From NCBI GenBank assembly GCA_001724265.1, contig MEDY01000033.1:1-64000 (forward strand): a stretch of 64,000 nt of DNA, read 5' to 3'. The stretch comes from Rhizaria sp. SCN 62-66. Lineage: Eukaryota. Below, one piece after another: positions 21,909 through 53,485 of the stretch (position 1 is its first letter; every line of letters begins with the position of its first letter). The notes under the pieces are model-generated. The model searched no databases and was not told where the DNA came from. It was given only the letters and a program-made list of their open reading frames with translations. Both the position numbers and the translations under genes were made by a program.

Positions 21909-22188
21909 GAGCTTGGCCTACAAAGTCGATTGACGTTGCAGTTTCGGTAACGACCCTGACTTTAGCACATCACAGAGCATTGTATTGTCCGTGTGAGAGG
22001 CTGTACATGTGATATCTAATTTTTTGTGATAGATTACATACTACGTTGTATTTACCAACTTACTGGACTTGTTATACCCCCTGTGCTGCATAGGCGTTTC
22101 ACACTCTCCTTCCACAGCCCCGCACAGCCTGCTTTGGTATCCCACTGGTCACTCGCCCCATATAGTGGCTTGCTGTCTTGCCCCCAAC

Positions 22189-28200: not shown

Positions 28201-31200
28201 CTGTGATGGCGCGGTGCGAGAAGGTCTCGGCGCCCAACACCTCCGTAAGCTTGTGTGTCGCGAGAGGGAGCTCGGGAGACGTATACATTGCCTTGGCAAA
28301 AGCAGATGCATGAGTTGTACTTGCGGACTTGCTATCGACAACAGAAGAGCTTGAACTTAGGGCTTTGATGTGAACTGAAGGGAAGTCCGGATAGGTGCCC
28401 CTGAGAGGAGTCATCATCCGACGCAGCAACAGCGCCTGGGCTGCGGGAGGCAGCAGGTTCGCAGTCGAAGCGCACTCGTCATTGCTGCCACCCCAAGCAG
28501 CATATGCGGCCTCGGCAGCCGCTGCAGTAGCAGCAGAGGCAGCGGCGGCTGCAGCCTCTTCGTCTGTAACCTCATTGGTATTGGTGCTAGAGCTTGCTGT
28601 CGTAGGCTGCAATACTTTGGTATCTGAAGACTTAGCGCAACCAATAGAGCCACCAGACTGGCTGGGACGATGAATAGCAGAACCAGTGGCAGCTGCAACA
28701 TCGCTCTCGTTGTTGAAGTCAACAGTGACAACTTCAGGCATCAGCTTCTGCAGTCCGAGCAGCGCTGATTCGGTCACAGTGGGTGCGATATCGGCAGCGC
28801 CAGCACCACTGCCAGGAGCAGTCGCAACGGCCGCCGCGGCGGCCGCGGCTGCGACAGCGGCGGCGGCCGCGGCGGGGTTGGGCGCGGTCTCGACCGTGGG
28901 GACCTGGGCCCAGCCGCCCCGCAGCCATAGTACGGAGCCGGGGCGCAGGTGCGGCGCCAGCGCGGCCGCGGTGGCGACGGGGAGTTCGATGGCGATGACG
29001 CGGAGTGTGTGCGTGTAGAGCAGGACGCGCACCGGCGCCTGCTGCTGCTTCTGCGGGTCTTGGGGTTGCGAAGCACCGTTCTCACTCGCAGACTCATCAG
29101 TGGGGATAGATGCTAGGGAGGAGAAAGAAGAGGAAGAATACAACGCTGGCGGCTGCTGCTCTCCTTCAGGCTCATGCTGCTGTTTAGCGCGGACCTTCTT
29201 GTTATTCGTGCTCGCTTTGCCGCCCTTTTGATTTGTACTCGTATTGCCGCTTGGTGCAAGAGCGGCGTTTGCAGTCTTATTGGGATTCGCAGAGTCAAGA
29301 GCGAGTGCAGGTGTCCAGAGGCTCGAAAGAGCGCTCGCAGACGCAAACGGAACTAAACCACTCATATTGCTGCTGCTGGAATCAACCTTCGTGGTGCTAC
29401 TGTTTGCACGGCCGTGAGCAGATGCTGTGGGACTGAGAGTCCCGTTGCGGTGGGGCATCCAGAGTGCAGTCGGGGGGAACTGCGAGCCGAGAGGCAGCAC
29501 ACCGCACCACGTACCAGAACCCTTCTCGTCACCGACATTCGCAGCAACACCGGAGTGCAAGTGCAACGCGCCCGAGGGCTGCAGCAAGCTATTTGCATTT
29601 TCTGAGGAAGTTGTGAGCGTGTCTAAAGGGGCGAGCGCGGTGATTAGCGCAGGCCGAAGACCGAGGTCGAGACCGGCACCCTCGACTTCGGCGGCGGCAG
29701 CAGCGGCAGCGGCAGCAGCGGCGACAGCAGCAGCGTTGTTGTACGAAGCGCGGCCAGGAGTGCAATGAACAGGAGCGCTCGGCTCCGTTTTGACTGCGTT
29801 GGACGCAACCGATGCATCATCGTCGTCGTGATCATCATCGCCACCACCGTCGTTACTTCCAAAGCCTTCGTCGTTGTCTTCCTCTTCTGTCGCTGCGGCA
29901 GAGCCAGCGGCACTCGCCGAGTCACCAGCCGCGCCCTCGGAGGCGGCGGCGTCTTCGGCCGCCTTCTGCATCTCCGCGAGTTTCGCCTTGGACACGAACC
30001 TGCCGCCTATGCCCACGGCAGCGCCCGCGGCGCCCATGCGCGCGCGCCCGCCGCGGCCTCGGAGGCTGCCACGCGCGAACCGGGCGGGTCCCATACCCGT
30101 CACGATCATCGCGCCCGCGGCGCCCTTGCTGGCGCTGGCCATGGCGCCGCCGCTGCTGGCCCCGGCCGTGGCGCGGTGGGTCGAGACGGGGCGCGCAACG
30201 CGGCCGAACGTCGCTGCCGCCGCCGTGGCCGCGGCCGTGGCAACGCCCGCGGGCGCCGGCGTCGCCCAGAGCACGAGCGCGAGCCCAAAGAAGTCGCCCG
30301 GGCGCGCGAGCTTGCGGCTGAGCAACGGCGCCTCGTGCGGCGGCGTCGCGTGCGCCGGCACGGCTAGCGCGCCGGGGGGCAGGAAGGTCGGGGCGGCGGC
30401 GGACGTGAACAGCACCGCGTCCGCGGCCGTGGCCAAGGCTGCGGCGGCGACCGCGACGGGCGTGCCCGAGGCGGCGTCGCTGTGACTTGCCAGCGGGGTG
30501 AAGGCCTTGAGGCCGGCGGACGAGAGGGCGCCCACGGAGCCCATGCCACCGGCTGTCATTGTTCCTGTAGCCGCTGCGAACAAGGATGACGAGTCGGACG
30601 ACGCGGTTGCGGTTGCCGCGCGGTTCGCAGTGATGTTCTCGAGCGGCTTGAGGCCGTGCGTGTGGATGCTGTAGAGGTCCTCCGCAACGAGACCCAGGAC
30701 AGAGACGCCGGAGCCGAGAACTGCGTTGATGCCGAACTGACCCATACCAACGCCGGTGCGCAACGCTAACGCGGCGGCTGCGGTGTCGCTGTCATCAGCT
30801 TCGCTGCGGTCATCCCTCTTGACAGAGCTAGCCTTCGCGGCAGACTCTAGCTTAGCTTTAACGTCTGCGTGAGCGTTTGCTGCTGCGTGACTGGCGTTGC
30901 TGCCTGAGGGCGGGTTCATGAGGCCGAGTGCGGCCAGAGCGGTGCGTTTGTTGGCGCGTGGCATGGTCTTCCGAGGCACGCGCACACGGGTACCGATGCC
31001 CAGACCGACGCCAATCGCGCCAGAGCTCGCCGTGGGGTTACTGACCACGGCAGAGCTCGCACTGGCGGCAGCCGGAGGGTACGCGTTGCTCGAGGTGTAC
31101 GGGTACAAGTGGCTCTGCGCAGCGGGCGGTGCGGAGTCGGACGCGTAGGCCGGGGACGCAAACGGGGAGCGCGCGGACTGACGGGACCTGACCCAGCCCG

Positions 31201-34084
31201 AGTAGGAAGGCACGAGCGCCGAGACGTCGCGCACACGCAAGACGGTCTTGTCAGCTGGAGTAGAGTCGGAACACGTCTTTGCGTCCTGAACATCATCGTC
31301 ATCGTCATCATCGTTCATGGTCTTGATGTTATCACCACTCACGTGTATCTTCTTGTCATCATTCGTGTCAACGAAATGCTGCTGTTCGGACAAGTGCTCA
31401 GCGTACTGCGCGGTCGACGTGAGCACCACGTCCTCGCGCCATGCACGGTACAGCGCCTTCTCCACGCGGCTCGCGGACCAGAGCGCGCGCAGCGGGCCGG
31501 GCGCGGGACCTAGCGCGCGCGCCTCAGCGGGGACACCGCGGGCGTCAGCGTCGCTGGCGTCGTCGTCGTCGCTGCTGTCACCGCCAGAGTTCGCGCTTGC
31601 CTTGCTGGCGTGGCTGTGAGCCGCCGGAGGGAAGAGCTGGCCGTTGCGGATATCGATAAGCCAGTGCTGCGGGTCCTGGGGCTGCGGCTCTGTCTCGGCA
31701 GCGGGGTACGCAAAGGACAGGGCGACGGCCAGGCGACGGGCACCACGGGGAGGGCCCTGTGGCGACTGCGGCTGCGCACTGGTGTCGGCGCTTGCTACGG
31801 CCACAGCAGACACGGAGTCGGGACTTGCACTGACGTCAGCAACAGCAACAGCTGAAGAAGCGGATGTCGCTGGGGACGCCTTAGCACTGCAGCTGTCGCT
31901 GCCGCTGTAATCACTCCCACTGGTATCGCTCTCATCGCCCATGGAGCCCTTGGACTTCTTGGTGCCGCTCTTAGACGTTGAGCCTCTCGCCTTCGATTCA
32001 GCTGACTTAGAAGCATTCTTCGTAGCGCCAGCACCCTTCGACTTGGCAGTCACATTCCGACTCTCATCAGCACTTGACCCATCGCTATCACTGTTGGTGG
32101 TGATTTTGGCTGTTGATGTCCCGTCAGGCGTAAACCAAGGCGCAAACGGAGCAGCAGTGATGCGAACACAGTCAGCAGCGGCGCCCGCACCCGCAGTCTT
32201 ATTAGAACTGCCAGTCTGCCTATGTGCGGTTGCCTTAGCGCCACCTGCCTTGCCACCCTTGGCGCCCGACTTCGCGCCGCGCGTCGGTGCTGCAGTGGGC
32301 GACGGCCAGTGCGAGAGACCGAGCGCGCGGGCCGCGTCTTGAGGTCCAGAGCCGGCAATGACCGTGTATGCAATCTTTCGCTCATCGCGAGCCTCACTGC
32401 CCGCGGGCGAGTCGTTTGCACCGGCGCCTGCGCTTGCACTGCTCCGGAGACGCAGTCGCAGTGAGTTGGAGCCAGATGGCGTGAGCTGCGACGCGGGCCG
32501 CAGGTGCGCAGGAACGAGCGACGAGGGCAGCATGTACAAAACGCGACGCGCACGCATGGCAGCAATCGTTGCGGCAGTAGGAGAGACTACGTTGTCAGCG
32601 GAGGCGTTTGAGCTCGCCGCAGAGGTAGTCGCAGCCTGGTTCGGCGACGTTGAGCTCTTGGCATTGTCATCATCACGTTTGAGCTCATCACCATCGTCAT
32701 CGGCGCTGCCGTTATCACTGTCACCACTGTCCGAGCTCGCATTCTTCTTACTCTTCGACTTGCTACCCACATTGTTCTTGTTGTTCTGGGTGTTTTTGTC
32801 GCTACTACTAGTCTTGCTTTTCTTGTTCTTAGCGGTCTTGTCGGCATTATCACTTGCATCAGAGCTGTCGTCACTGTTGTCAGACGCCGCCGTCTCGCTC
32901 GAGCTCGCACACAACTCGTCTGAGTTCTCCTCAGCGGCAGAGCTCGCATCGGAGTCAACATCACCTCCGCTATCGTCATTGTCACTGTCTGAGGCAGAGT
33001 CCGCGTTTGAGCCCGAGTCGTCGTCAGAGTCTTGGTCAGAGTTCGATGAATCGTCGTCCTTCATTGCGCGGCCCTTGATCTTCGATGGCAGGCTCTTAGA
33101 CTTGGAGGTGGCACTCTTGGAGTTCTTGGATGCAGAAGCCTTGGACGTAGAGCCTGATTTACTGTTCTTAGATAATCCCTTTGTTGAGCCCGTCTTGGTC
33201 CCCACAGCTGATTGAATCTTGCTCGTCTCATCGCCCTTGATCTTGTTCTTGGAGTGGCTTTTCATGGATGACGCCACAGTTGCTGAGGTAGATGTTGGTG
33301 ACACCTTCGCACTGCTCGAACGAGAATGCGCCTGTGACTGCAATTGCGATTGTGGCTGTGAAAGCGAGGGAACTGGTGGCTTTCGAGTCGAGTCGCTGTA
33401 CGAAACAACACCAGGTCCTCGGTCGCGGCCTGTCCGCCTCACGGCTACGTTGTCATCATCGTCTTCACTGGACCCGTTCTCATCATCGTCGTCGGTGTGA
33501 TCTTGCTCTGACGCGTCGTTGTCATCACGGTCATCGTCGTCAGTGTCATCAGTGTCAGTGCCACTGCCCCCACTGTCACTCTCGTGATTCTTACCCTTAG
33601 CCTTGTTACTTGTCTTTGCACTTGCCTTAGGCTTGTTCTTCGCACTCGTCCCGTGCTTTTCTCCTGCAGAGCTACTCAGGGTGGACGAGTCCTTGCCATA
33701 CTTGCTCACAGCCGCTGCAGTCGCGGACGCAGCACTTACAGCCGCGCTACTCGCACCCTTGCCGCCCTTCAGCGGGGACTTCTTGGGGGCCGCAGTGGAC
33801 TTGGAGGACGAGGTTAGCGACGGTGGGGCATGCTTGCTTGCGCCTGCAGAAGCTGAGGCGGGCGCGGGGCCAAACGCAGAGACACCAAGGGACGGTGATA
33901 CAGAAACAGCAGGCGCTTTAGGGGCAGAAAGCAGTGGTGACGAGGCTGCAGAAGCAGATGCTGAGCCTGAGCTGCTGGAGGTTACGCGAGTGAAGCCGAA
34001 TCTAGCGAGACTGGCGGCAGAGGAGGACACGGAGGCAGACTTCTTGCTCGCCGGGGCGGACTTGCCGGCCGCACTGCGGGGCAT
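25283..34084 (-). CDS. Large low-complexity nuclear protein with a PEHE-like motif (KANSL1/MSL1 type) and a C-terminal CW-type zinc finger, ~2933 aa
   Basis: Probable start MPRSAAGKS at 34084. C-terminal [15 protein letters not shown]...YFC...RC fits zf-CW. [11 protein letters not shown] and [23 protein letters not shown] fit the two halves of PEHE. Also (GR)n tracts and K/D/S-rich blocks. Stop is TAA. Confidence 0.75.
   Translation of the reverse strand: [2933 protein letters not shown]
27432..27512 (-). repeat. Coding (Gly-Arg)n repeat, about 13 units; a shorter copy lies at ~25825-25867
   Basis: Translates as [28 protein letters not shown] with mixed codons. Confidence 0.85.
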
Positions 34085-35178
34085 GGCTAGGCAACTCGAG
34101 AAGAGGCCAGTAGACCGAATGAAAGTGTGGTGTGGCACAAAGGCGAGCTGGTTGCTCTGGGGTTGAGGAAGGCGAGGGAATAAAAAGCCACAGTTCAAAT
34201 TTCGCATTAGTTTAAGAAGATATAATCGGGCATCGTAATGGATAAATTAGCAATGTAACTGCTAATAAGAGTCCGAATTAAAATTGAAGAAAGCTCATGG
34301 AGATCTAGCAAGAAGAATGATTGGCACTCAGAAAGGCGCGAATGAGGCCCTTAAATGGAAAACGAAGGATATAACGGCGTCAGTACCGACAAACAGGGCA
34401 TGAAGAGCAAATTAAGGTAGAATTATCAAATTTGTTGTCAATTGTTAAAGTAATATTCCGTATTCATGCTATACTGCTTCATTGGTCATGCTTCAAACAA
34501 ATCATAGTTGGCACCATGCCAGTTCATACACTACGCTTTTCTTCGCTCCCAGTCAAAATCTCAGTCTTGCCATGCGAATCAACCATGTTTGGACAAGTCT
34601 CTGTCATCCCTCTCCAATCACAGTGAAAGGAGTTGTTTTGACTCAAGCCGGCATTGCAAACACACAATGTGGCATTGCAACTACTGTGATCGATGTCCTC
34701 AATCCGCTGTTTGTTGTGAGCGAGGCGGCTCGCTAGTCACGAGTGCCCATCAGAATGTGCCGATATCAAGCACAAATGCGTGATGATCAAAACTTTGCAC
34801 CAGCGGTCATTGGCGCGGTGAATTGAAATGCTGTGTACCGTGTGCGCAGTTGTTTTTAGCCTTTGTGGCATCGGTCCTCGTTCTTTTCAAGTCACCTCAG
34901 CTCTCCACTGGTTCCGTACAGTCGCAGTTTGTGGTATGTGGTCAAATCCCAATCTCCTCAAGAAGCTCGTATCCGAATGCCACATGGCATCATACCATCG
35001 TCAATGTGCATGCTTTCTTGTGTCTTTTATGCTACTCTTCAATTTTCAGCTTTCTTTAAAATTCCAATATCACTATATCGACTGTATACCTGTCAAAACC
35101 ACGTTCTTGTTGCTCCGCCTCACCTGCTTTTCTCACGTATTCCACCATCTCTTTGGCACTCTCACCAGCTCTCCCCCG

Positions 35179-36721
35179 ATGCTTCGCCGCCCGGGCGCGA
35201 CCCTCTCACGTGTGTTTACGAGCCGAGTTCCTTCCATCTTGATCAAGGCGCCTGCCCGCGCTTTCACGAGCTCATCGCAGTCTTTTGAACGCGTTCGCCC
35301 CTCCGATTCAATCCCCGACGTCGTCGAGAAGATGCTTGCAAACGGGCAGAGGCGTGCATATCTTGCTCCCAACGATCTTACTGGTTAGTTTGAGGCGTCA
35401 CATCCCATGTTCAAGGACCACGTACGTTGCTATCTTGTATCAACGACTCTCCTGCTCCGAAAACCTCGATACTCTATATCGAAGCTCTCCGCTTGTGTCT
35501 GTGGTCTTATATTGTTTTTTTGCTCTTTATGATGTCTCATTGTAGATCCTGACCTCTGTCATTGACGACGAGCGCGACTACGACCGCCATGAGGCGATTT
35601 TTCTTGAAGTCGGCGCCGAGACCAAGGCCCTGCACGCCGTCTTCCTCCACAACACGACCCGCGGCGCCGGTGCTGGCGGTGTGCGCGCGATGCATTACCG
35701 CGCGCTCGAGGACTACGTCAAGGACGGTCTGCGTCTTTCGCAGTCGATGTCGCACAAGTGCGCGCTTGCTGGCATTTGGTGGGGCGGCGGCGGCTCGCTC
35801 ATCTCGCTTCCCGACCCACGCAAGGGCTCGTTCGACCGCGCGGCGCTGTTCCGCGAGCACGGCCGCTTCGTCACATCGCTCCAGGGCTGCTTTTTCACCG
35901 GCAAAGACCTCGGTGTGACGGAGGAAGACATGGCGACCGTGCACCAGCAGACTCGCTTTGTGATGAACGTCCCGCCCGCGGTCGGCGGCAGCGGCGATCC
36001 TTCTGGCTTCACCGGCAAGGGCGTCGTCGTCGCGATGGAGGCCGCCGTGACGCACGCCAAGCTCCCCGGCATCCAGGGCCTCTCGCTTGCCGTCATGGGC
36101 GCCGGTAAGGTCGCGCGCTCCGTCGTTGCCGCCGCGCTGGACAAGGGCGTGGAGCGCGTGATTGTTGCCGACCCCGACGCGGCCGCGGTTGCGAGCATGC
36201 AAGCCATCTTCAACGACGGCCGCGTGTTGATCAAGCACGTCGACCCGACCGACATCTCGATCGTGGCCGAAGACGTCGACATCCTCGCGCCCTGCGCCAC
36301 GGGCGGTGTGCTGAACCCGATGACGATCCCGGCTATCAAGGCCAAGTTCATCGTCGGCGGCGCCAACAACCAGCTGCTAGACAAGGTGCGCGACGCAGTG
36401 CTGCTCAAGAACCGCGGGATCACGTTCGTACCCGACTACATCTGCAACCGCATGGGCGTGATGGTCGCCACGGCTGAGACGGCGGGCACGATGATCAACG
36501 ACCCGCTGCTGCTGCGCCACCTGGACAAGAGCTACCCGCGCGGCATCTACGCAATGACGCACATGGTGCTCGACCGCGCAGAGGCCGACAACACCACCAC
36601 GGCGCACGCCGCGCGCGTCGTCGCCGAGGAGTTGTGCCAGCAGCCGCACCTCATCCTGCCCAACCGCGCGAGGAGCATTGCGCAGTCGCTCCGCCAGCAC
36701 GGCTGGGTGTACAATGGCTGA
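35179..36721 (+). CDS. Glu/Leu/Phe/Val dehydrogenase family protein with mitochondrial-type presequence, 472 aa; exons 35179-35421 and 35546-36721; in-frame TAG at 35386-35388
   Basis: Arg/Ser-rich N-terminus without acidic residues (MLRRPGATLSRVFTSRVPS). Motifs HNTTRGAGAGGVR, MSHKCALAGIWWGGG, GSGDPS, GAGKVA, DILAPCATGGVL, GGANNQL and VPDYICNRMG. Stop is TGA. Confidence 0.9.
35422..35545 (+). other. Spliceosomal intron (124 nt, phase 0) in the dehydrogenase gene
   Basis: CAC|GTACGT donor, identical to the donor at 48262. T-rich tract and TTGTAG|ATC acceptor. Phases match only if the upstream TAG is translated. Confidence 0.85.
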
Positions 36722-37102
36722 ACTTAAGTTAAGGCATTTAGCCACTCCTGCAGCCATTCCTGTTTTGACTTCTGGAGCATTCCTTTCTTACCCTTGTACT
36801 CTTTGGTCAGAGTGTGAAACGTGTTATATCTAGTTAATTACTGCTTGTCACTTTGCCTTGTGTGCTTTGTTCCCCTAATAATCGTAATACAAGGTGTCAA
36901 TCAACATTGTTGCGTGGGGGACATAAAGATGCTGTATTTACATGGGTAGTTGAATCTTGAACGCGTAATTGTACACTGAAGTATGGCAAACTAAAATATA
37001 ATTGAAAATGAGTAAAGTTCGAAACAAATACGTACGATTGATGAGATAAGCAAAAAATTGTTGATTTGGGGCACATGTTTGATTTTTGATTCTAGGGTCA
37101 TT

Positions 37103-40100
37103 TCATTCGTTGTTCTCCAACGTGGCAGTAGTATGACTGGTCTTGCTCTTGTCTTTGCGGACACGAATCGTCTTATTGACGATCACAATACGGCGCGTCT
37201 TCTCGGGCTTGCTATCCCCAGCAACACCTGCAGCAGCATGTGTCATCGCATCAATCGCCGCACCAGCAGCAGCTGCGGCACTGGCGTCAGTGCCACTCGT
37301 GACCGTGACAGAGGGACGGCGGGTGACTGTCTTCACTGTGGTCGTGCGACGAATTACAGAGACAGTGCCACGCTTGCGGGCTGCGTCGCCGTTATTCGTG
37401 TCACTAGTGTTAGAGCTGGCAGTCGCAGTACTATTCGCATTGCTGTTCGACGATGCTTGGGCAGGGAAAGCAGCCAGTGCAGCGACAACAGCAGCAGCAG
37501 GGGAAACAAGCTTGACGGGGCTCTTGACGCGACCAGTGTTGCTATCGGAGTTGTTGTTGTTGTTTGAAGCAGTCGCCTGCTGGTTCTTCGCGACAGGGCT
37601 CTTGACGGTGGTGTTCGGGTTGCTGCTATTGTTACGCTTGCTTGTGGGGCTCTTCGCAGGGCTCGCCTTCGTGTTCGCGCCCGCGCTAGTTTGAGAATGA
37701 GCGTTCGCGTTGCCACCGAACATAGCAGCGCGAGCAGAAACATTACTACCGGCGACAGCAGCAGCAGGGCGAAAAGCAGGAGCGGCAACAGCTCTCTTCG
37801 TATTCCCACCATCAGCAGCAACAGCAGCAGAGTGGGCCGCGTTAGTCGTGCTGTTGCTAGTCTTGTTACCGTGAGAAACTGTTCCGCCAAACATGCTGGC
37901 AATAGCCGCAGCCTTCGTGCCCACCGCGTTGCCACCACTCGCCGTCACAGCAACTTGATCGTGAGAGACAGCAGCAGTGGTCGAGCTACTGCTATTGTTG
38001 CTAATCGTGTTCGTTGCAGGAGCGTTGAACCCACCCACATAGACGGCAGGAATGGATGAGAATGTCGCAGCAAGCGCGCTCACCCGACTGCTTGCGGAGC
38101 GCTGCTTGCTCGCACTCTTGGGGACAGGTGAGCTCGGCTGCGCTGCAGTGGTGTTATCATCATTCGAGTGATCCTGCAAAACAGCCTTCTTCGCGGGTGT
38201 CTCAGAAGCAGCGTTCTTGAGCTTTTGCGGGGACTTTGCGCCCGTGGTGTCGTTCGCAGGTTTAGAGCTCGCATCTGTGTTGTTGTTATTGGCAGCATTG
38301 TGGAGCCAACGCTTATGAGCAGCACCCTCACCCTTACCAACAGCAGTGACGTTAGCAGCAGCAGAGTCTCTTTGCTTGTTGTTATTCTGGCCCTTGTTGT
38401 CAGCAGCCGCAGAAGACTCCGCCTTCGCAGCAGCGGCGACAACTGCACCAGCCCTCTTGGGAGGACTGCTCTTTGCTGCATCGCGCTGGTTCGCAGTGCT
38501 CACGTCACCGCTCGTGTTCTTTGTGCTGCTCGTGCTATTGTTGTGACTCGTCTTGCGCAGAGCAGCTGCACGGAAATCACTCACATCTGCAGTGGCAACA
38601 ACACGAGCAGCCTCGTCCTTCTTCTGAGCGTTCGCTTGATGTGCGTTCTTGCTGTTGCTATCACTCTGAGCCTGTGGCCCAGTCACCGAGGAACCTTTGT
38701 TCTTGCCGTTGGGTGTCTGCCTTTGCTTCTGCTGCTCGTTTTTGTCGTTATTGTTGTTGTTACTCTTGCCACTGACAGTGACACTGTGAGAGCTCACGGG
38801 TGCAGCGATGTTCGCCTTTGTGGTCGAGCCGGCAACGTTGCTGTCACGAGACTTGCCCTTCTTAGGAGTTGCAGATGCAACAGCATTAACACCTAAAGCA
38901 GGAGCATGATCGCCGGCATTCACGTTCGCGCCACTGATGCCACCATTCGCAGCCTTAGCATTGCCTCTGCCACCCTTGCCCTTGGCCGGTGTCGTAAACA
39001 GCGTCCGCTTCGCCCGATCGCCGCTGGCATGCTCATCCTCAGCAGTAGCGTCACCACCGGCGGCAGCCGCAGCGGCAGCAGCGCGCGCGGCCCCGCGCTG
39101 GGTCTTCTTCGCCTTGAGCTGGTTGTTCGCATACTCGCGCGCCCACGTCGACGCCAAACGCGCCGACTCAGCGGTAATGTCACCAAAAGCGCCCGCAAAC
39201 ATCGCCAGAAAGTCACCCCAGAGAGTGAAAATAAGCTCCCAAGCCCCCTTAGCGTCTGGCTCAACAAGCAACACGGCCAAATCTGCGCCGTTCTTGCTCG
39301 CCTTCTCAAGCCGCGACTTGACCTCCGTGACTCGAGCGGTGATATAGTCCAAAGTGCTATCAACAAGAGCGAGTGCATCAGTCTCAGCCGTCGCGATAGC
39401 GACCCACTCGGCCGGAGGAGATACGCTCGCTGACTCAGCCTTGTCACTGTTGGTCTTACTGTTCTTCGCTGCGTCAGCAAGAATCGCGGCCATCGCTACC
39501 TGGCGCGCACGGAGGCCCTTGACATAGGTCGTGAACTTATTGCACTGCCCTCCCAACGCAGAGATGTCGCTCGTCAAGCTCGCCTGCTCAATGCGGGCCG
39601 CGGTGGCAAACGCGGCGGCCGAGGGCGCCAGCATCGAGCAGAGGTCGCTGTGTTTGCGCATGAGAATGCGGGTGAGGAAGTGGGCGAGATTGGCCTGTGG
39701 CGGCAGCGGGATGCGCGGGCCGGTCAGGTCGAGGCTCACGGCACCGGTCTCGGGGTTCGTTACGATGACAACAGCGCTCGCTGCCACATCCGTCGTTGCG
39801 GCAGCGTTGCCACTGCTCTCAGCTGTGCTCTCGTTGGCGCCGTCATTCTTGTTAGAGATGGCGTTGTTGCGCTTCGCAGAGTCGATCTTGACGGCGCTCA
39901 GCTTGCTCAAATCCTTCAGCTTGACCGCATACACACCAGCCTTGCCCTCTGACATCGCGTTGAGCGTGTTGCCCGCAGTCAGCGCGGTTGCCAAGAGCGT
40001 GCGCGTGTGCGCCGAGTCCTTAATGGTGCTCTGTGCCTTAAGGACGATGTCGAGCGAAGTGTCGATCGAGCGCACCCACGCAGGGAACTCGCGCTGAAAG

Positions 40101-43100
40101 ACACTGGCCTGCACTGCGCTCTCGAATGCGCTGATGGAAGTGCTGTTCGTCGTTGCACCCTTGCTCTTGTCGTTGCCGCTCGAGTAGCGGCTGCTGGCAA
40201 TAGCCTTGTACGCGTCATCGGTCTCGGCCACGGCTAACACCCACGACTCGGCGCTGGCAAGCGTCACGCGCTGCCCCTTAAACCCGCGCACGAGCTTCAC
40301 CTCCTCCGCCGTGGGCACCAGGTTTGACATGATGCCGAGCTGATCGGCGGTCAGGCCGGGCGCGGCGCTGAGGGCGGCGTGGATCACCCCACTCTCGGGC
40401 TGGCGAAGCTTGGCGAGCGCGATGTTGATGGCCTGGGAGCGGCGGCCGTCGAGCAGGGTGATGGTGCCTGCCTCGACAGCAGTGGTGCCAACGGCGGCAT
40501 CGGCAGCAGCGCCTGTGCCGCTGGTGCTGTTGGCGGCGTTGGTGAGTGAACGGGCGGCTGCTTGGGGGAACAACGCCGCCAAATCCGCAATGTCGGTCCT
40601 CGAAAGCACGCCAAACACGTCTTCACCGTCCTCATCGTCGTTGTTGCTCGCACCGCCCTTGCCCTTACCTTTGCCCTTGCTCTTGCCGTTGTTCTTTGAG
40701 AGGGTCGCAAGTGCAGTAGCCGGCGTTGCCAGTCCAGCTGCAACCGCAGCCGCAGTGACGTCAGCGCACACCTCTTGCCACAGAGTGTTCTTGATGTTTC
40801 CAAGGGGGATCGACGCCCAGTGGACGATCTTGAGCTTAATATCCTTCAGTGAGGCAAACATGACGCGGTACTTCGTCTGATCCAAGGATGCAGCGCCCTT
40901 CTTCCCCTTGCGCGGGCTGCCGCTCTTACTGATCTCGCCGTCGTCGCCGCCGGCACCCTCTGGGAGCAGCAAGTGTGCAAACAGAGCCCCAGCCTCCGGC
41001 ATCGCGCTGATGCCGAGCGACTGCAGCAGTGCCGCGAGCTCCTCCTTCCTCTTCTTCTCCGCAGCAGCGCGCCGCGCGGCCACCGCCGCATTCCCACTGC
41101 TACCGGCGTTCGCGCTACTCGCGCTTGGGCTGGCGTCGTCGCCGAAGAGATCGAAGTCGAGGGGCGGCGGCGGAACACCGCTGGGGTCTGTGTCGAACAT
41201 GTCGTCAAACAGACCGTCAGGTGGCGGCGGGGGTGCGCCAGGGCCGCTCAGAGCAGTGCCGCTTGAACTAGCTTTGGTGACTGTGGGCAACGTCGGGAGA
41301 GCAGTGATCGGTGAGAACAGCGTTTCGTCATCAAAGACGTCGAAAAACAGCTCAGCAGGCGGGGGCGGCACGTCAGAATTTTTGTAACTACTAGTGCTCA
41401 CAGCATTCGCATTGACAATGGCTCCATTCGCAACGTCAGCAGCATTAACAACAGCAATTGTCGGCGCAGCGACAGGCTTGTTGAATCCCTCCAGCGCCGC
41501 CATCGCCACCGGCACCGACAGGACCCCGACATCGTTATCCACCGTGGTAATGCTATTATTGCTCAGCTGCGCGCGCCTGAGCCGCGCCACGCCGGGGGGC
41601 GGCGTGCCGGCGTAGGTGGCGACCCGGCCCATGAGTGCCGTCAGCGAGTCGACGGGGGCCGAGAGCGAGGCCAGGCGCGCAGCGCGGGCGGCGATACTGC
41701 TGCTGCCGAGCCACGCCGCCGCGCCACCGGGCGTCGCGCCGCCGCCGGGCTGGAGCGAGAGGGAGGAGGCGAGGCCGCCGTGGTTCGAGAACAGGTACGA
41801 GAAGTTGTGGGGGTGCGCGGTGCTGCCGTTGGGCGAGGCAAGCATGAACGCGCCGCTGCTGTTATGGCCCCCGGCGCCGGGGCTGCCCACCAGTGCCACC
41901 GCGCCTCTGCCGCGGTCGCCGCCGCCGGCGCCGGCGGGGAGCAGCGGGAGCGCGGTCTGGTAGAACTGCTTCTGCGCCTCGAGCGCAATGGCCAGGATGC
42001 GGTCGCTGAAGCCACCGGGCCCCGTGAGGCGCGCGAGCGACTGTGACAGCCCCAGCACGATGCCGTCGTAGAGCGTGCAGTGGTGGTGCAGCGCCGCGTT
42101 GGCCGCCGTCAGCTGTGCCTGCTGCTGCTGCGTGGCGGGCGCGTCTTCGGAGGCGAGAGAGGCGCTGGACTCGGCGATCGCGTTGATCTCCTCCACGGCG
42201 TCGCAGATCCCGTCGTAGTGCTGCTCGGCGCGCGCGAGCTCGGCCTCGAAGCTCTCGCACTCACACTCCCACTCCAGAGAGACCTCCTCGAGCGCGTCGC
42301 GCAGGTCCTTCTGGAAGATAACGCGCGCGCGGTGCGCGATGTGCTGCTGCAGGGCCACAAAGTCGGCGCGCAGACCGGCCGAGAGCGACGTGGTGGGATT
42401 GCTCGTAGCGAAGACCCGGGGCGCGCTGGGGTTACTCGCGGGCGCTCTCTTGTTAACGGGGCTGCTCACACGGGGACTGTCGGCACTAATGACGGCGCTA
42501 TTTTTAGCAAAGCGACGAAGGCGCGGCGAGCCCGACGCTGCGTCGCCGACGCTGTTACGATTGTCAGCGGTCACTCTGCCTCTGTTGTGGCTGTTAGGAG
42601 TCGTATTGCTACTGTTGTTGGTACTTGTGTTTGTGTTATTGTTGCGGGGCGAGAAGGGAGAAGAAAACGCAAGCGCAGTCGCAAGCCTGCGTGGCGGAGA
42701 CAGCAAAACACCCTGACTTTGATGCAGTTGCTGCTTGATGGCGCTGTTCGAAGCACTATTGTTGTCTTGGTGACCGCGAGTGGGCGACTCGTGCAGAGTC
42801 GCAAGCGCGCCTCCCCGAGGCGAGAGCAACAGAGCTGCCTCACCACTGTGGCCCGCACCAGTGTTGGCATTGCCTCTCTTGCTCTCGCTGTCGTCACTGT
42901 TGCTGGTGCTGTTACTGTAATTCTGTTTGCGGTGATTTGCGCGGACGGGCGTAGCGAGCGGCGAGCCCGCAGCGCTGCTACTAACACTACTAGCAGCCGA
43001 GTCGTACTTGTAGCTCGCGCGACTGTTCCCGCTGCCATAGTGCTCACGCTACCACTGCTCCTGATACACGCTCGCCGGTACAGCACCAGCGCCACCAACA

Positions 43101-44005
43101 GCGGCGCCCACACCGGCGCTGCCCGCGCCACGAACGCCGCCGCTCGCGCCCGTGACCGCAAGCGCGGACGCCGACGTGTTGTGCAGCGAGCACGCCTGCG
43201 TGGCCATGTCCATGAGGCTCTCTGCAAAGTCGAGCACGTCGTCGTGCAGCGTTTCGAGCACGGCGCGCGCAGACTGCAGCTGCGCGCCCAGGCTCTCGAT
43301 GTGCGCCGCGTCGATCTCAACCCGCTCAAAGCTCAAGCTGCTGGCGTCGGTATCGGGGTCGGCGGCGGCATCAGCGCTAGAAGTGGTTACGTGGGGCGTG
43401 CGCGTGGGAGAGAGAATGACGAGGGGAGAGAGTAAGCGTCCTGTGCTGTTGGCACCCAGGCCACTGTTCGAAAGAGTCCTTGAAGCGGGGGATAGAAGCA
43501 GGGGTGAGGCCAAATGCACCGCGTTAGCACCGACACCCGCACTGTTCTTCGTACTCGTGATGGTGTTGCCCAAACTCAGTGTACTGCTTATAGATTCTTC
43601 GCTTACGTCGCGGGGCTTCGACTGCTGCTCAGGAGAAGAGAAAAATGGAAACGAGAACGGTAGCTTAAACAGTGGAGAGTGCACGTGTTGTTGTTGCTGT
43701 TGCTTCTGTGTGTCATCAGCAGTTGCAGCATCACTACTGCCGTTGTTGCGCTTGTTGTTCGCCTTCGTGGGGGTGTTGCTTGAGCTCGTGCTGTTGCCGC
43801 TAGGTCCGGTGTCGTTATGAGCAGTCTTGGTGGGTGTTGGCGAAGACGAAAAGAAATACATTTTCTTGAGAAACGTGTCAAACACGCTTGGGGAGTGTGG
43901 AGGCAGAGCTTTCAGTGCATGTTGCTGTACAACAACGGTCTTCGCGCTTGTGTTGGCCTTGGCGACAGTGGAGGCCTTGGCGAGCTTCTTCTTGCGCGGG
44001 GGCAT
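37103..44005 (-). CDS. Formin (FH1-FH2), 2300 aa when the in-frame TAG at 43049-43051 is read as sense
   Basis: FH2 motifs LKIVHWASIP..IKNTLW, TLLDGRRSQAINIALAKL, LVPTAEEVKLV, LLATALTAGNTLN and LKDLSKLSAVK, preceded by short poly-Pro tracts. Track ORFs 43049..44005 and 37103..42829 share a frame and are separated only by one TAG plus 73 open codons. Stop is TGA. Confidence 0.88.
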
Positions 44006-44530
44006 GATTTAGTGGAGAGCGAGAGTCGCGCAGCCAGAAGGTGAAAATGATTATGCTGCAAGCAAGCGGGTCGAGAATATGTGTGCCGCAAACCAGAGTA
44101 GAGCGGGGATGGTGCCGAGAGCGACGAGGCGAAGGGGGGGCGTGCCGCTCGAAAGTTTGAAAACTGGTATTGAAAAATTGTTACGGAAGGAAAGATAATT
44201 TTGAGAAATAAATAAGGTAAAACATATCAAACGCACAATTCCATCACAATAACAAATAAAATTGTGAATCCACGAAGATTTCAAGCAATGCAACGTTGTC
44301 AAATCCAGTGGCATATGCACCAACAACGAGCCAATGTCCAACGGACATCAACTTCTACGGAGGATATGTCCGATAAATAGAGGGCCATGACGCAAACCAT
44401 GATGCTTCACGTGCGAAGATGTGGATTTCTGTACTTTCGCAAAATCATATACTCTTGAACTGCGACTGGCCTAGTGAATCTCGCCCTACAACCTCCTCAT
44501 ACCTTTACGCGAAAAGTCAAGGATGAGCAC

Positions 44531-45123
44531 ATGCTGTCGGATATTGTGATGTGTGTGGGTATTTATGACAAATGGCTGAGGCAGGACGGCAACTACCGCA
44601 TGGTGATCCGGCTCAATTGTGATATGCTTCCCTGCGATTCTGTGCACTTTCGTGTCGCATCGAAGAACTTTGTTCTTGGCGATAGGCTTCATATGTCTTT
44701 TGTGCCCCCGGCCCTGTACACAGCGGCATCGTTGCCGTTTCTTGCGTCTCACTGTTTCACTGCAGTAGCTCCCTGACTGACAAGACTCGCTATGCCTCTG
44801 GACCGTGGGTCCATCCTGGAAGTACCATTGTCTACGGCGAATACGCTCAGCCGACGACTGGCGCTGATACAGCGACGTACCCCGTTGGTACAGTGCTAAT
44901 ATATTCCCGCAGCGTTGCTCCCCCCGCCAGAGGCGATGGCCCTGGCTTTTATGACACCCTGTGGTTCATCATCTTCAAGCCGTGCCCCGTGAGCTTGCTG
45001 CGCGGAGCAGTGCCCGTTGGACGCGTGATGTCGTGCGTGTCTGGTCTTGTGGCTGCGACTGGTGACCGCGGGGAAGAACCTTTTGACGCAAATATGTTGT
45101 AGTTCTCTTCAAGCGAACTGTGA
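44531..45123 (+). CDS. Possible small orphan gene or decayed gene (~180 aa; putative intron 44716-44765; TAG at 45100-45102 before TGA at 45121-45123)
   Basis: Moderate-GC, protein-like ORFs in two frames that a 50-nt GT...CAG phase-2 intron would join. No recognisable family, and the donor GTACAC deviates from the local consensus. Confidence 0.3.
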
Positions 45124-45721
45124 GGATGCGACATTGTACAGACATGTCACACTGTTTGTCGCATACGTCCCCCTCGCTCTCAGTTTCGCACAACTCTTTT
45201 CGAAGCAAGTGAAACAAGTCTTTTCATCTATGATTGATTATTTCACTCTTCTTCGTGATACTATGCTGTATCGAGTAATGAGTACTTATAGTGCGTTGAA
45301 TCTGTTTATTATGTTTGTGTTTTTGACTGTTGCATCATGTTATATTTTTAATAAACTTTGAATGCTTCTAAAGGAACGTCAAACATCTTAAAACATCAAA
45401 TGTGCACGATCAAAATCAAAGAAAACACACTATATGGAACTGAAATTAAATACATCAATTACAATTGGCGATAATATTTCGTGATGTAACACCAGTTCCC
45501 CATCCAATAAGGATATATCAGTCGAAAAGTGGCGCGTAACACTAACTCGCAATCACGATACGCTCCTCATATCTATCACTTGCATTCCGTCTCGTATGTT
45601 CACTCAGCAACACAATTCTCATACTAGCACACTTGAACAACGGTGTAATGACATTTTTATGAAGTGCTTCATTCAGAACAGCGAAATATTGCGCTTTTTG
45701 TGGCTGTTCGCCGTTCTTCCG

Positions 45722-45734
45722 ATTTTTCGGAACC
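45722..45734 (+). promoter_or_regulatory. Candidate promoter motif ATTTTTCGGAACC, copy 2
   Basis: Identical 13-mer to 21896-21908. Lies upstream of the PX-C2-SH3 gene. Confidence 0.55.
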
Positions 45735-46256
45735 TGCTGGCAAGAGGTGGCGGCGGGTGGCAGTCGCGAGGCGAGCCAAGGAAAACTGAGCGATTACGAT
45801 ATCTGCGCATACCACCACTTGGAGACGTCTATTCAATTCCAATTTAGGATGTCACGACAGAATGGCGCAGTTTTGTTTTCTCATTCTTATACGCTCCTTA
45901 AACTCAACACATACAATGTGTTGCACTCTCTTAAATGAAGGAGTCGTTTGGCACTGAGTCACCAAGCAGCATGCTTTTCCTTAAAGTTGCCTGAGTCTCA
46001 ACAGTTCATTCTGTAATAGCATTGTCACCGAGGGAATCGTATTTACTGCTTATTATTTGATATGAAATTGTTATGTCCATTTGAATTTGCGCTGTTCTAG
46101 TTGCTAATTGTATCCTTCTTGCGTCACTCCTACTTGCTCCCTAACTTATCCTCGATCGTCATTGCTCGTCTTTCCGCTATTTCTCTGTCGCCTTGATGCT
46201 TCGTTATGTGCCTAACTGCTGCCTCTTGCTAACACTTTAGGCCTCCTGTTTCCGAC

Positions 46257-48932
46257 ATGGATCCTCCGATCTACCCTCGGATCTGGATCCCCACTACGTC
46301 CGAAACCACGGCGATCGTGGACGGGGAGGACAAGGTCTACACGGCCTACAACATTCATATCGAAGTCGCCCCCGGTCAGATGCGTTACGCCGTGCGCCGC
46401 TTCCACGAATTTGTCGAGTTTGATAAGGTCTGGTCTGCGCTCTACACCACTCTCAAGGACCAGTTCGAGCTGCCCAGCAAGGTCATGCTGTTCAAGACCA
46501 CCAAGGCCATGGAGTCCCGTCGCAGCGGCCTCGAGAGCTACATCGTGGGCCTCTCCCGCGTGCGTTCCATGGAGACCTTCGTCTGCCAGTTTCTCGGTCT
46601 CACCGAGGACGAGCTTTACATCCGCCCCAAGAAGCCCGCCGGCCCCGCCGGAAGCACCCCCGGCGGCCGCGCGGGCCACCCAACCCTAACCCCCGCCGTG
46701 AGCATCGATCTGGTCAACCAGCGCGGCATGGAGGGCCTCAGCGGCAAGATCGACGGCCTGCAGCGCGAGCTTGTTGCGCAGTCCGGCGCGGCGCCGTTGC
46801 CCAAGGGCGCGCTGGCGAGCTACGAGGAGAACGGCGAGACGTACATCGTCGGCGCCTCAGCCTCTGGCGGCACCACGGGTGGCAACCTCGACGACCTGCG
46901 CAGTGCGGGCGCCAAGGAGTCGATGAAGGAGGCCCCGCGCGGCAACACGCTTGAGGCCAGCGAGAAGGCGCGCCGCGACAAGGAGGAGTTCCTGAAGAAG
47001 AACGCAGGCGTGATCGCGTCGCTGATGCCCGGCCGCCAGCTCAACGTAGTGTACAACATCGGTAAAGCGGGCGAGATGTACGACCGCTCGCTGGGCAAGG
47101 TGCAGCTGTCACTGTGGTACCGCCCCGGTGTGATGGGCAACACGCGTAAGCCGATGCGCGACGCGATCATCACCGACGACACTGGCGGCGGCGTCATCGT
47201 CATCACCGTTCACTGCGGCATGGACCTGCCGTCCAACGACGGCATCAGCAATCCTTACGTCAAGACGTACCTTACGCCCGACCCGGACAAGGTGTCGAAG
47301 CAGAAGACGAGCGCCAAGTCGCGCACGGTGAACCCCACGTGGGAGGAGGCGCTCGAGTACCGCGATATCTACCCCGACGAGCTGCGGCTCAAGTGCCTCA
47401 CCATCTCCGTCTGGGACAAGAAGCTCAACGGCAAGAACATGTGCATGGGCGAGGTCGTGTTCGACTCGCTGGCCACCTTGCCGCGCACCGACACCGAGCG
47501 CCTGCACCGCTGGTTTGACCTCAAGCCGTGGACCAACTTCGCCAACACTGGCACGTCGGCCGCGACAGGCATCTCGACCTACGCCAAGCGCAACTCCGTG
47601 ACCGACAACGCGCCCCCCGCGGCGACATATTCCCCGTCCAGCTCACCCATGGCCTCCCCGGTTAGTCCCGGTGGCCCCAGCGGTGGCGCGTCCCCCGCGC
47701 TGCCCCGCGGCCCGCCCCCGCGGCTGCCGTCGGGCCCGCCGCCGCGCGTTAACAGCAGCCACGGCGCCGGGTCTGCGCCCACGTCGCCGCTTGCGGCCAC
47801 GTCGAGCTACGCCAGCAACGGGTCCAGCGGCAGCGCCGGCGCGGTCGAAGGCCGTCCGCACGTCGCCGCCGCCCCCACTGCTGCTTCCGCGAGTAGCTCC
47901 AGCGGCGGCGGCTTCTTCTCCGGGCTCTTTGGCCGCAGCGGCAGCGCCGGGGCCGCCAGCCCGCCTGCCACGCCTGCGTCGCCCCCGCAGTCCCCGATCC
48001 CGCCCCTTGCGCCCACCACGAGCGCCAGCGCCAGCGCGACGAACAAGATCAACGTTGCCAGCGCCGCCCCCGCGCCCCGCCCCTGGGCAGTGGCCGCGGC
48101 CAACAACAACAAGCCGCCAGTGACCGTGACCGCAAGCTCGAGCGCGAGCTCCAGTAGCAGCGTGAAGCCCGGCGCCGGCCCCACGCCCGCGGCGGCGGCG
48201 ATTGCGGCCGCTGGCGCAAACGCGCGTCCTTCGTGGGCCCGTCCCCTGCCCTCCACGCCCGGTACGTAAACCACAACTACACGCATGTTTGGAGGCATAT
48301 GTTTTATTATTCTCATAATTCACGTTGAAATTATTGAAATAATGGAAGAATCACGATTTTTAATTTTTACTTTCGTTTCCTGATATATCTTACTGATATT
48401 GTCACAACTCTGTTTGTTTTGTTCCTTCGCCCTTATTATCTCAGGAGCTTCCAGCCCGCCCGCCCCGCCCGTTAAGGCCGGCGCTGCCTCCGGCGCCGCG
48501 TCTCCCCCCGCGTTCGGGCGCGCCCCGTCTACGCCTGCCGTGAGTAACCCGCCCCCCGCGTCCGCCGCCGCGTCCGCCGCATCGCCCCGCGCCCCCCCGC
48601 GGCCCTCGCTCATCGGCGTCAACACGCGCCCGCTGCCCTCCCCGACAGGCGCCGCCTCGCCGCCGCCGCCGCCCGCGTCCGCCGCCGTCGCCGCCGCGCC
48701 CGCCGCGGTCAAGGCCCCACCGCCGCCACCGGTGTCGGTGCGGCCCTCAGTGCCGACGGCGCTGGTGGTGGAGACGTACGTGCCCACGGCCGACGAGGCC
48801 GCGGCCAGCGTTCTGGCGCTGACCAAGGGCACCAAGGTCGAGGTTATCGACAGCACCACGGGTGCGTGGTGGTATGGCAAGATCGGCGCCAAGGAAGGGT
48901 ACTTCCCCGCCGAGTTCGTGAAGATGATGTAA
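46257..48932 (+). CDS. PX domain - C2 domain - proline-rich - SH3 protein, ~830 aa; exons 46257-48261 and 48445-48932; an extra upstream exon is possible
   Basis: PX: YTAYNIHI..VRRFHEFVEF..LPSK..ESRRSGLESYI. C2: NPYVKTYLTPDPDKVSKQKT..NPTWEE..ISVWD..MGEV. SH3: LALTKGTKVEVID..WWYGKIGAKEGYFPAEFV. A CTAAC..TTTAG acceptor-like site ending at 46240 suggests an upstream intron. Stop is TAA. Confidence 0.88.
48262..48444 (+). other. Spliceosomal intron (183 nt, phase 1)
   Basis: G|GTACGT...CTCAG|GA, very AT-rich. Joins ORFs 46257..48269 and 48399..48932 in frame. Confidence 0.92.
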
Positions 48933-49953
48933 GCAAGGCATGTTAGCCTGCTATCCAAGGGGGGCCGGGCACTTAGATGTGACGAATGCCTTTTTGTTTT
49001 TGTTTGCTTATCTGTAAATATGCCGTTAATAATTATTATTTCTGCCCGACACTTTTTATTTCTCCTTTTCATTTCCGCGTTTGTCTTTGTTTTGAGTTAG
49101 ACTATGCTTGTTTCCATGCCTTACAGCATCTTCTCGCGCCGCGCTCTCTGATCTTGAACCCACGAATGAACACATGAGCATGGGACTGCTACTAACTCCA
49201 TGCTCTTGTTCATCGGAAGAACGGAGCCAATTTTGTAGCTTTTTTGTACAACATCAACGAAGAAGATTATCAATACACGTATACTTAGTGCACACTTTGT
49301 CTTGGTTTGCAATGATTGGCAGTGTGGACTGATTAAATCGTGATATGATGTAGTACATTGTATTGTAATAATCGTGGCGAGTTTCGATAATAATTCTCGT
49401 GATCGTGAGCGACAGCACACTTTGACAGCGCGCTCAAGGCCAGCTCACAGTCACTTGGCAGATCGGAACCAACATCCACATCAAAATAGCGGGTGCCACA
49501 AACAAAGATAACTCAAGTCATTGCTTAAGCTATGATGAAAAGAAATTGAAATATAAGCTTGTGCTGAAGCGATCCTGAAATGCAACGTAGCGCGCCACCG
49601 ACTGGGCCACTGTGCATGACGTTATCGCCCGTGTTCAAGGTGCTGATCGTAACAGGAGAGAACAAAAAAGAAAACAACAAAGACATAACAGAAGAGACCA
49701 ACATCTAAAACATGAACGGATAAAACCCACGCGTTGTCATTGTCACAACGATTGGTCCACCAGGAGGCATGTGACACAGACGAGGTTGAGCTTTGAGGCA
49801 GCGCAAGGAATTAGAGCGACAACAAAGATAGAGGAGCACGATCATATGCATCATACAAACAGAAATGGCCATTGCAGTCATAGATCGTGCTTGGGGGGCA
49901 CACTTCAAGCGAGAGTGACGATATCATGCACTTAACACTTCGAGCGCTGCCAC

Positions 49954-50765
49954 TTAGAGCTTGCACTGCGGACTGCCCTTGTCGTCCGTGCCCGCGGCGG
50001 GCGCACTGCCCGCGCCCTTCGGCGTCACCGGCGCAGAGCCAGCGCTCGAGCTGCCAGCGGAGGGCGCCTCACCCATGGGGATGGGCGTGGTTTGGGGCTT
50101 CTGGTGCTCATCGTAGTAGAACGCCATGTGAACGCTGCGGCGTGAGAAGCCGCACTGCTCGTAGAAGGCAACGTTCTTCTCGTTGCAGTCCAGGATAATC
50201 TTGTAGCAGCCATACGCGCGGGCCTCCTCGACCAGGCGCTCGATGATGCTGCGAGAGGGAGCGAAAACAAAGTGCAACGAGATGAATAATGAGTAAATGA
50301 TAGTAGTGAGAAGTAGCCGTTACAGTACATGCATGCACTTGACACGTAAGATAGAGGCATTTCAAAACAGACTTGAAGTATAGTAAACAAGATAGATACA
50401 AAGGTGTGCGGATATTTGCCGTACATCTTGCCGAGGTTGAGGCCCCGGTAGTTCGAGTCGACGACAACGTCCTCGATGTGGGCCACGAGGCCGCAGTTGT
50501 GGATGAACTTGGCCTCGTAAAACAAGCTCGCAGTGCAGGCAATGCGCCCCTTGGCTTCGTCCTCGCCGACCAGAGTAACTGAGGCGCCCGCACGCGAGCG
50601 CACGTCAAGGCAGCGCTCGAACTGCTCGCGCGAGACGGCGCCGAGGTCGGTGAGCTGGGAGAGGATGGCGGGGAAGCCCTTGTCGTAGTCGCCGCGCGCG
50701 AGGGGGCGGAACGTGATCTTGACGTCGGACTTAGGACGCGAAAAGTCAGCGGGAGCAGATGACAT
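49954..50765 (-). CDS. GNA1: Glucosamine-6-phosphate N-acetyltransferase (GNAT), 211 aa; exons 50765-50425 and 50248-49954
   Basis: RPLARGDYDKGF..LSQLT, EAKFIHNCGLVAHIEDVVVDSNYRGLNLGK, GCYKIILDCNEKNVAFYEQCGF. Stop is TAA. Confidence 0.95.
50249..50424 (-). other. Spliceosomal intron (176 nt, phase 2) in GNA1
   Basis: AT|GTACGG...CGCAG|C gives LGK-I-IIERL in frame. Confidence 0.92.
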
Positions 50766-51072: not shown

Positions 51073-51298
51073 GTCGACATGATCTTCGTCGAACTGTGGT
51101 AACGGCCTCGAAGTTGAACAGATCAACACTGTACTTCGTAGTGTTTTCAGTATGAAGATTTACAAAAGAGAAATAACTGACCAGCTTTAAATTATCTTGA
51201 TTTTCTATTGATAGGTTCACCAACGGAGACTTCACGCCACAGCACTCACTTAAACCTAGTCTACTGCTCGTCTGGCTGAGCAGCTCTCGCGGTCGCTC

Positions 51299-53454: not shown

Positions 53455-53485
<31 letters not shown>

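Follow-up and report, generated by a model that had tools for sequence, protein, structure and literature searches.

Two neighboring genes in a 64,000-nucleotide stretch of DNA (contig MEDY01000033.1, positions 1 to 64,000 of the forward strand, deposited as Rhizaria sp. SCN 62-66; this whole stretch is referred to hereafter as the window) were each found to carry one in-frame TAG codon: a dehydrogenase gene on the plus strand (gene A; TAG at 35386-35388) and a formin gene on the minus strand (gene B; TAG at 43051-43049). Both TAGs are real and in frame, with coding and conserved sequence around them, and one of them is kept in spliced RNA. The ribosome must pass both UAGs if the conserved parts of the two proteins are to be produced; that UAG is translated, by what means, and as which amino acid is our inference. 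Translation of UAG as an amino acid in this organism is the explanation that we tentatively favor, with a confidence somewhat short of an even chance; if UAG is translated, this would mostly be through a young or weak reassignment via a tRNA with the anticodon CUA, tRNA(CUA). The likelihoods worded here and below are our rough priors, with no computation behind them, and they leave a small remainder that is given to none of the explanations. A first-pass annotation of the same DNA had reported in-frame TAGs at 35386 (+) and 43049 (-) in two otherwise intact neighboring genes. Both were confirmed at these positions in coding sequence, and no second lesion was found in the 473 + 2301 codons of the two genes.

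The TAG codon of the dehydrogenase gene

The TAG of gene A is codon 70 of the 473 codons in the gene model and lies in the context GGT TAG TTT GAG. The parts of the gene are as follows.

35179..35421, plus strand: exon 1, with the presequence, a subfamily N-terminal extension and the in-frame TAG at codon 70
35422..35545, plus strand: intron of 124 nt, GTACGT..TAG, GC content 0.41, with its joint seen in sequencing run X5
35546..36721, plus strand: exon 2, with the Glu/Leu/Phe/Val dehydrogenase core and a TGA end

The product matches PF02812 (1.4e-11) and PF00208 (1.6e-17), the dimerisation and NAD(P)-binding domains, both above the cut-offs. Its nearest relative, the protein P0003 (491 aa, 65% identity, encoded on the metagenome contigs L001 and L002), matches leucine dehydrogenases in the PDB at 1.6e-44. 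In translation, exon 1 starts with a basic presequence without any acidic residue, which looks mitochondrial, and gene A is thus predicted to encode a mitochondrial-type Leu/Phe/Val dehydrogenase. Such a presequence can serve its purpose only as an in-frame fusion with the enzyme.

Exon 1 aligns on both sides of the TAG with P0003 and with six bacterial homologues. At the site in question, P0003 reads ...NDVTGKFEASHPM..., as compared with ...NDLTG*FEASHPM... here; its codon is AAG (Lys), and the residues of the bacterial homologues are G, E, A, G, E, and D, so that the column is variable. As the sole alignable site is thus a variable one, the amino acid cannot be called, and the suggestion of the first-pass annotation that UAG is most simply Gln found no support. 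Between codons 41 and 69, ten synonymous and eight non-synonymous differences separate gene A from the gene of P0003, which indicates that the segment upstream of the TAG has been kept as protein under purifying selection.

The behavior of this codon in RNA was examined using public sequencing runs, which were compared with the window as assembled contigs; in such a comparison, minor alleles are invisible, and stretches without listed RNA contigs are uninformative. X3 and X4 are DNA-type runs from two different studies, neither of which is the study of the possible source run. The run X5, automatically labeled "probably DNA", is treated as containing cDNA because it shows two splices (35421>35546 and 48260>48444) that are unlisted for X3 and X4, together with zero depth in intergenic bins. 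One X5 contig matches 35167-35421 without a difference or a gap, its fit ending precisely at the exon border. A second X5 contig joins 35421 to 35546 (GT..AG, skipping 124 nt, with 25 letters on its shorter side), and the ends of this joint verify the intron of the gene model. The unchanged contig and the adjoining splice contig together show that the first TAG is unedited and retained in the spliced message, which settles for this site the doubt, raised in the first-pass annotation, that editing or splicing might remove it. The sequence GTTAGT at 35384, within GGTTAGT, was considered as a splice donor and rejected: the cDNA contig reads through it, and its use with the proven acceptor would break the frame.

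The gene of P0003 has no intron where gene A has its 124-nt intron. Beyond the eukaryotic relative, the nearest homologues of gene A are proteins of bacterial metagenome-assembled genomes (41-47% identity; named sources Myxococcota, Polyangiaceae, and Pseudomonadota) that share an N-terminal extension of ~45 residues. Their distribution suggests that a bacterial-type dehydrogenase was acquired by this eukaryotic lineage and gained its presequence afterwards.

The TAG codon of the formin gene

In gene B, the TAG is codon 319 in a frame of 2301 codons, and its context is TGG TAG CGT GAG. Two features are needed here.

37103..44005, minus strand: gene B, a formin of 2300 residues with long low-complexity parts and a TGA end
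41945..42373, minus strand: conserved domain of gene B, at about codons 545-687, matched by P0254

The FH2 domain was detected as PF02181 at 4e-23, above the cut-off, and runs of PPPP and PPPPP occur upstream of it. The second TAG sits in a low-complexity stretch. Coding potential was scored as codon-usage log-odds trained on six giant open reading frames (ORFs). The 318 codons before the TAG score 0.53 bits/codon, and the same frame after it scores 0.59-0.72; the other two frames range from -0.56 to -0.79 bits/codon. The next in-frame ATG is codon 721, 401 codons on, and the score over these 401 codons is 0.60. P0254, a 193-aa fragment from a relative, is 57% identical to gene B over 157 residues, and the position of its match (about codons 545-687) places a conserved domain past the TAG and before any ATG. 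Given these coding scores and the homology, the in-frame placement of both TAGs in coding sequence is not due to chance.

When the first 720 residues were searched exhaustively against 1.84 billion representatives, three matches were obtained: the organism's own two pieces and P0254. The database stores this formin as separate proteins of 318 residues (the N-terminal part) and 1823 residues. No homologue spanning the second TAG was found in either search, as the word-index search gave the organism's own 1823-residue piece and the exhaustive one gave P0254, which lies downstream. The 318-residue N-terminal part matches no Pfam family.

Two other gene structures were considered. One, that gene B consists of two genes, was rejected, as it leaves 401 strongly coding codons, the conserved domain included, without an ATG. 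Another, that an intron covers the second TAG, appears unlikely. For lengths of 30-500 nt that are multiples of three, 262 GT..AG pairs can be drawn around it. The DNA there has a GC content of 0.58-0.86, as compared with 0.41 and 0.32 in the measured introns, and the 40 shortest of the 262 candidates have GC contents of 0.56-0.73 and poor donors, none of them GTACG. The RNA structure 3′ of the TAG of gene B is not unusual (z 0.21; 104 of 200 shuffles fold as well).

TAG usage and the codons at gene ends

The window contains ten genes, nine of them complete and one (gene 9) leaving the window. Among the complete genes, six end in TAA (1002-, 11733-, 24963+, 25283-, 48932+, 49954-) and three in TGA (6422-, 36721+, 37103-). 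The first-pass annotation had counted eight complete genes, six with TAA and two with TGA; the numbers for TGA and for the total are thus corrected, and its statement that no gene ends in TAG stands. TAG terminators were absent from all nine genes and also from the three genes on 6.4 kb of the syntenic relative, which end in TGA, TAA, and TGA.

In-frame TAG was found twice in the 17,761 codons counted, or twice in ~18,800 codons when gene 8 and the acetyltransferase gene are added; the first-pass annotation had given two in about 18,600. Over the ~18,800 codons, none of the models requires a frame break or an in-frame TAA or TGA, in agreement with the earlier claim for TAA and TGA. The two TAGs share the local context G TAG NNT GAG; this was noticed post hoc on two sites and may be due to chance.

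Occurrence of the TAG codons in independent samples

The X3 DNA contigs span 33473-35705 and 40088-43557 with 0 differences, so that both TAGs are present in this run. An X4 DNA contig spans 34050-35796 with one difference (35164) and carries the first TAG; position 43049 is spanned by no X4 piece among those listed. Assembly error, which had been named as a possible refutation, is thus excluded for both TAGs.

Samples of three studies, dating from 2015 to 2025, differ by 1-5 bases per 20 kb, and both TAGs are common to them. The population is nearly clonal over studies and years. Within 30001-50000 of the window, six single-base differences between samples were found: five are non-coding (35164, 45316, 45492, 46141, and 49801), and one is coding (38547, at a second codon position of the formin). 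A CAG/CAA-type repeat at 37813-37830, in the C-terminal part of the formin, draws foreign contig ends and false joints in metagenome runs; the joints there are not evidence for rearrangement.

Comparison with known UAG-sense systems

The following comparison refers to two reports (Panek et al. 2017, PMC5304391, and McGowan et al. 2024, PMC11687900). In the rhizarian exLh, a member of Sainouroidea, UAG encodes Leu: 71 genes contain 384 in-frame UAGs, most of which fall on conserved Leu positions, and the terminators are 56 UAA and 15 UGA; in Guttulinopsis, a relative of exLh, UAA terminates almost all genes (PMC5304391). The present organism resembles exLh in that UAG occurs in frame in coding sequence and the only stops seen are UAA (the majority) and UGA, here six and three. 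It differs in that there are two UAGs in ~18,800 codons; one of them occupies a variable site, where the relative has Lys, and the other lies in low-complexity sequence. In the fornicate Iotanema spirale, UAG encodes Gln and accounts for ~8% of the Gln codons, with UAA as the main stop (PMC5304391). Here also, UAG alone would change its meaning; in contrast to Iotanema, UAG would make up ~0.4% of the Gln codons (2 vs 521), the lineage is unrelated, and nothing favors Gln. In phyllopharyngean ciliates, UAG encodes Leu or Gln, UAA is the preferred stop, internal UAG occurs in 78-91% of the genes, and suppressor tRNA genes were described in two genomes (PMC11687900). The preference for UAA is common to these ciliates and the present case, and a reassignment of UAG alone would be, whereas only two of ten genes have an internal UAG here, and ciliates are unrelated to this organism. 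PMC5304391 also cautions that scarce sense UAG can hide a reassignment. Our limited literature search yielded no such report on any eukaryote that is GC-rich or from wastewater, nor a rhizarian case beyond exLh.

As for the lineage, this stretch occurs in public metagenomes of bioreactors, wastewater, activated sludge, and fuel cells that come from several studies, so that the organism is known from metagenomes only. Of the public runs, X1-X4 contain 87-100% of the sampled words. The contig of the organism was absent from the three contig collections scanned (metagenome, genome, and viral contigs), the genome contigs giving a single bacterial homologue. The organism is an uncultured, GC-rich, intron-poor wastewater or bioreactor eukaryote that probably belongs to Rhizaria. 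In a quick single-gene tree, the dynamin of the relative groups with chlorarachniophytes and is separate from stramenopiles, amoebozoans, and fungi (Shimodaira-Hasegawa-like approximate likelihood ratio test, SH-aLRT, 99). On this phylogenetic evidence, the exLh precedent probably lies in the likely lineage of the present organism. Rhizaria is the home of the sole non-ciliate, non-metamonad organism known, according to PMC5304391, to use UAG alone as a sense codon. The same source describes sainouroids as free-living or coprophilic; such habits would suit wastewater, and this organism may possibly be a sainouroid.

The contig L001 of the relative (homologue of gene A at 38-1510) is syntenic with the window, as its downstream minus-strand gene is the C-terminus of a formin. 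On the upstream side of gene A, the relative has dynamin (L002, 86-2317) and the window has an orphan gene of 2988 codons. Synteny thus holds downstream and not upstream.

Interpretation of the in-frame TAG codons

In the explanation that we favor, UAG would be no effective terminator and would be translated as an amino acid, and UAA and UGA would end the genes. Ribosomes on the two mRNAs would pass codon 70 (dehydrogenase) and codon 319 (formin) and yield the full-length proteins. The most economical mechanism would be a tRNA with the anticodon CUA, possibly combined with an eRF1 that is poor at recognizing UAG. A mechanism of this type has been proposed for exLh and Iotanema. The very rare use would fit a very young or poorly decoded reassignment by codon capture, in which UAG was first lost as a terminator and is now returning by mutation at tolerant sites. 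Both sites are tolerant, as gene A has a variable column there and gene B a low-complexity stretch. The low use can be argued to reflect GC pressure, the youth of the reassignment, and the circumstance that low-use cases have been overlooked so far. The more specific proposal that the organism stands at the very start of a stop-to-sense change, with UAG gone from the gene ends, tRNA(CUA) or strong suppression present, and a few tolerant sites occupied at ~1 per 10,000 codons, we consider rather doubtful. No eRF1 gene lies in the window.

Several points weigh against the translation of UAG. It requires a rare kind of organism together with an unprecedentedly low use of the codon, 20 to 100 times below that of every UAG-sense lineage described (PMC5304391 and PMC11687900). 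The sample consists of only two codons in two of the ten genes, so that in-frame TAG is not widespread, and the six giant ORFs contain 0 TAG in 14,504 codons. With CAG occurring 430 times, the ratio of 534:118 for the synonymous pair CTG:TTG leads to the expectation that an established TAG=Gln would appear in dozens, as against the two seen. The absence of TAG from the 12 gene ends has a probability of ~0.07 if TAG ended 20% of genes, the latter value being assumed. The coincidence of two TAG interruptions carries little weight, since ~67% of random nonsense mutations would give TAG with this codon usage; two such mutations would both be TAG with a probability of ~0.45. For the second TAG, no RNA contig across it is among those listed, and the window contains no tRNA gene and no Rfam match. 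Thus, the earlier claim that UAG is decoded as an amino acid is supported in part: the reality of the TAGs and the conserved sequence beyond them are upheld, and its weak side lies in the two codons and their very low use.

Several of these points lend themselves to a different account, in which the code is standard, an almost clonal population has fixed two ordinary nonsense mutations to TAG, and the genes were recently disabled or N-terminally truncated so that their products start from M77 and M721. Both TAGs are located at 14-15% of the gene length (70/473 and 319/2301), that is, in the first 15%, where nonsense mutations are best tolerated, and the relative has the sense codon AAG at the site in gene A. 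A product starting at M77, which lies 19 nt beyond the TAG, would lose the presequence and the N-terminal extension and keep the classical leucine dehydrogenase core, because the PDB chains of leucine/phenylalanine dehydrogenases start near the position corresponding to residue 83-90. A start at M721 would keep FH1-FH2 of the formin. The near-clonality noted above (1-5 bases per 20 kb) favors the fixation of slightly harmful alleles. As in ordinary premature stops, the in-frame stops are single and N-terminal, the genes are intact, and downstream AUGs would keep the catalytic cores; unlike in ordinary premature stops, there are two in ten genes and in all samples examined, and neither TAG terminators nor in-frame TAA or TGA occur. 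The account requires that two of the ten genes, and neighbors at that, have independently acquired a null or hypomorphic mutation. Since no second lesion accompanies them, both would have to be very recent, and yet they are common to the three studies of 2015-2025. Truncation would remove segments conserved in relatives from both products and, in gene A, the presequence as well. Reinitiation after an upstream ORF of 69 codons is inefficient; nevertheless, the mRNA of gene A is present and spliced. The absence of TAG from the gene ends (0/9, and 0/3 in the relative) would have to be due to chance. We regard this account as unlikely on balance, while giving it real weight.

Site-specific readthrough, whether programmed or leaky, in which near-cognate tRNAs act and each mRNA perhaps yields products of two lengths, would suit the very small number of sites better than a global mechanism does. 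The context common to both sites fits it, as does the base after the TAG of gene B, which is C; a C after the stop codon is the leakiest context in eukaryotes. On the other hand, the common context was recognized post hoc on two sites, and the region 3′ of the TAG of gene B showed the ordinary folding described above. Known programmed readthrough extends C-termini, and we know of no precedent for a stop that separates a presequence from its enzyme or falls 14% of the way into a formin. The short products would be without recognizable function, the 318-residue part being without a Pfam family. Readthrough of this kind thus seems improbable. Least credible of all is an artefact in the form of an assembly error, RNA editing, an unrecognized intron, or wrong gene models (one gene in place of two, or misplaced starts). 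What speaks for it is the resemblance of GGTTAGT at the first TAG to a 5′ splice site and, at the second TAG, the multiple-of-three GT..AG pairs and the lack of a listed RNA contig. Against this, the independent DNA runs are concordant, and in the cDNA contig the first TAG is retained and the splice donor is GTACGT at 35422. The intron candidates at the second TAG differ from the real introns (GTACG, GC content 0.41/0.32) in their donors and their GC content of 0.56-0.73, and the two-gene model of gene B fails on its 401 coding codons without an ATG. An artefact is therefore excluded for the first TAG and unlikely for the second.

Significance of a possible rare sense UAG

Nuclear reassignment of UAG alone is known in very few lineages, all of them found through an abundant codon. 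If UAG is translated here, this would be a UAG-only reassignment in or near a lineage with one known case, at an unusual and possibly incipient level of use. If the organism does stand at the very start of the change, the codon-capture stage of a nuclear code change would be seen in nature for the first time. This would also suggest that low-use reassignments are overlooked, as the known cases were all found via abundant in-frame stops. With UAG translated at ~1 per 10,000 codons and never used as a terminator, the codon-capture and ambiguous-intermediate models would become testable in one organism, drawing on its tRNA set, eRF1, decoding efficiency, and the sites of the first new codons. A practical consequence is that gene callers cut genes at TAG, as seen in the 318- and 1823-residue database pieces of the formin. 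If both TAGs are nonsense alleles, the finding is ordinary.

Other genes and features of the window

The window is eukaryotic, GC-rich (0.46-0.74 in 2-kb steps), and densely packed with genes. In addition to genes A and B, the following genes were found.

1002-6740, minus strand: gene 1, no Pfam family, TAA stop
6422-11290, minus strand: gene 2, no Pfam family, TGA stop
11733-21794, minus strand: gene 3, no Pfam family, TAA stop
22033-24963, plus strand: gene 4, no Pfam family, TAA stop
25283-34246, minus strand: gene 5, no Pfam family, TAA stop
46233-48932, plus strand: gene 8, PX-C2-SH3 protein, intron 48262-48444, TAA stop
50774-49954, minus strand: acetyltransferase gene of the GNAT family, two exons, TAA stop
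from about 51260, plus strand: gene 9, WD40 giant that exits the window, stop outside the window

Intron-free giant genes of 1623, 1913, 2988, 3354, and >4247 codons occupy 1002-34246 and 51260-64000. Four of these five are without a Pfam family, and the one of >4247 codons, gene 9, has WD40 propellers. The introns at 35422, 48262, and ~50425 (minus strand) all begin with GTACG(T/G), and the GC contents of the two measured ones (0.41 and 0.32) are to be compared with ~0.6-0.7 in the exons.

A spacer of 2.2 kb (44009-46232; GC content 0.46) divides the divergent formin and PX-C2-SH3 genes, and the other spacers are much shorter (~0.2-1 kb). This spacer was checked for a gene ending in TAG: the best ORF there (44686-45102) scores 0.18 bits/codon and is unconvincing, and no Rfam match was found in it. 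In a poly(A) RNA run, some depth occurs at 44675-45341, inside the spacer.

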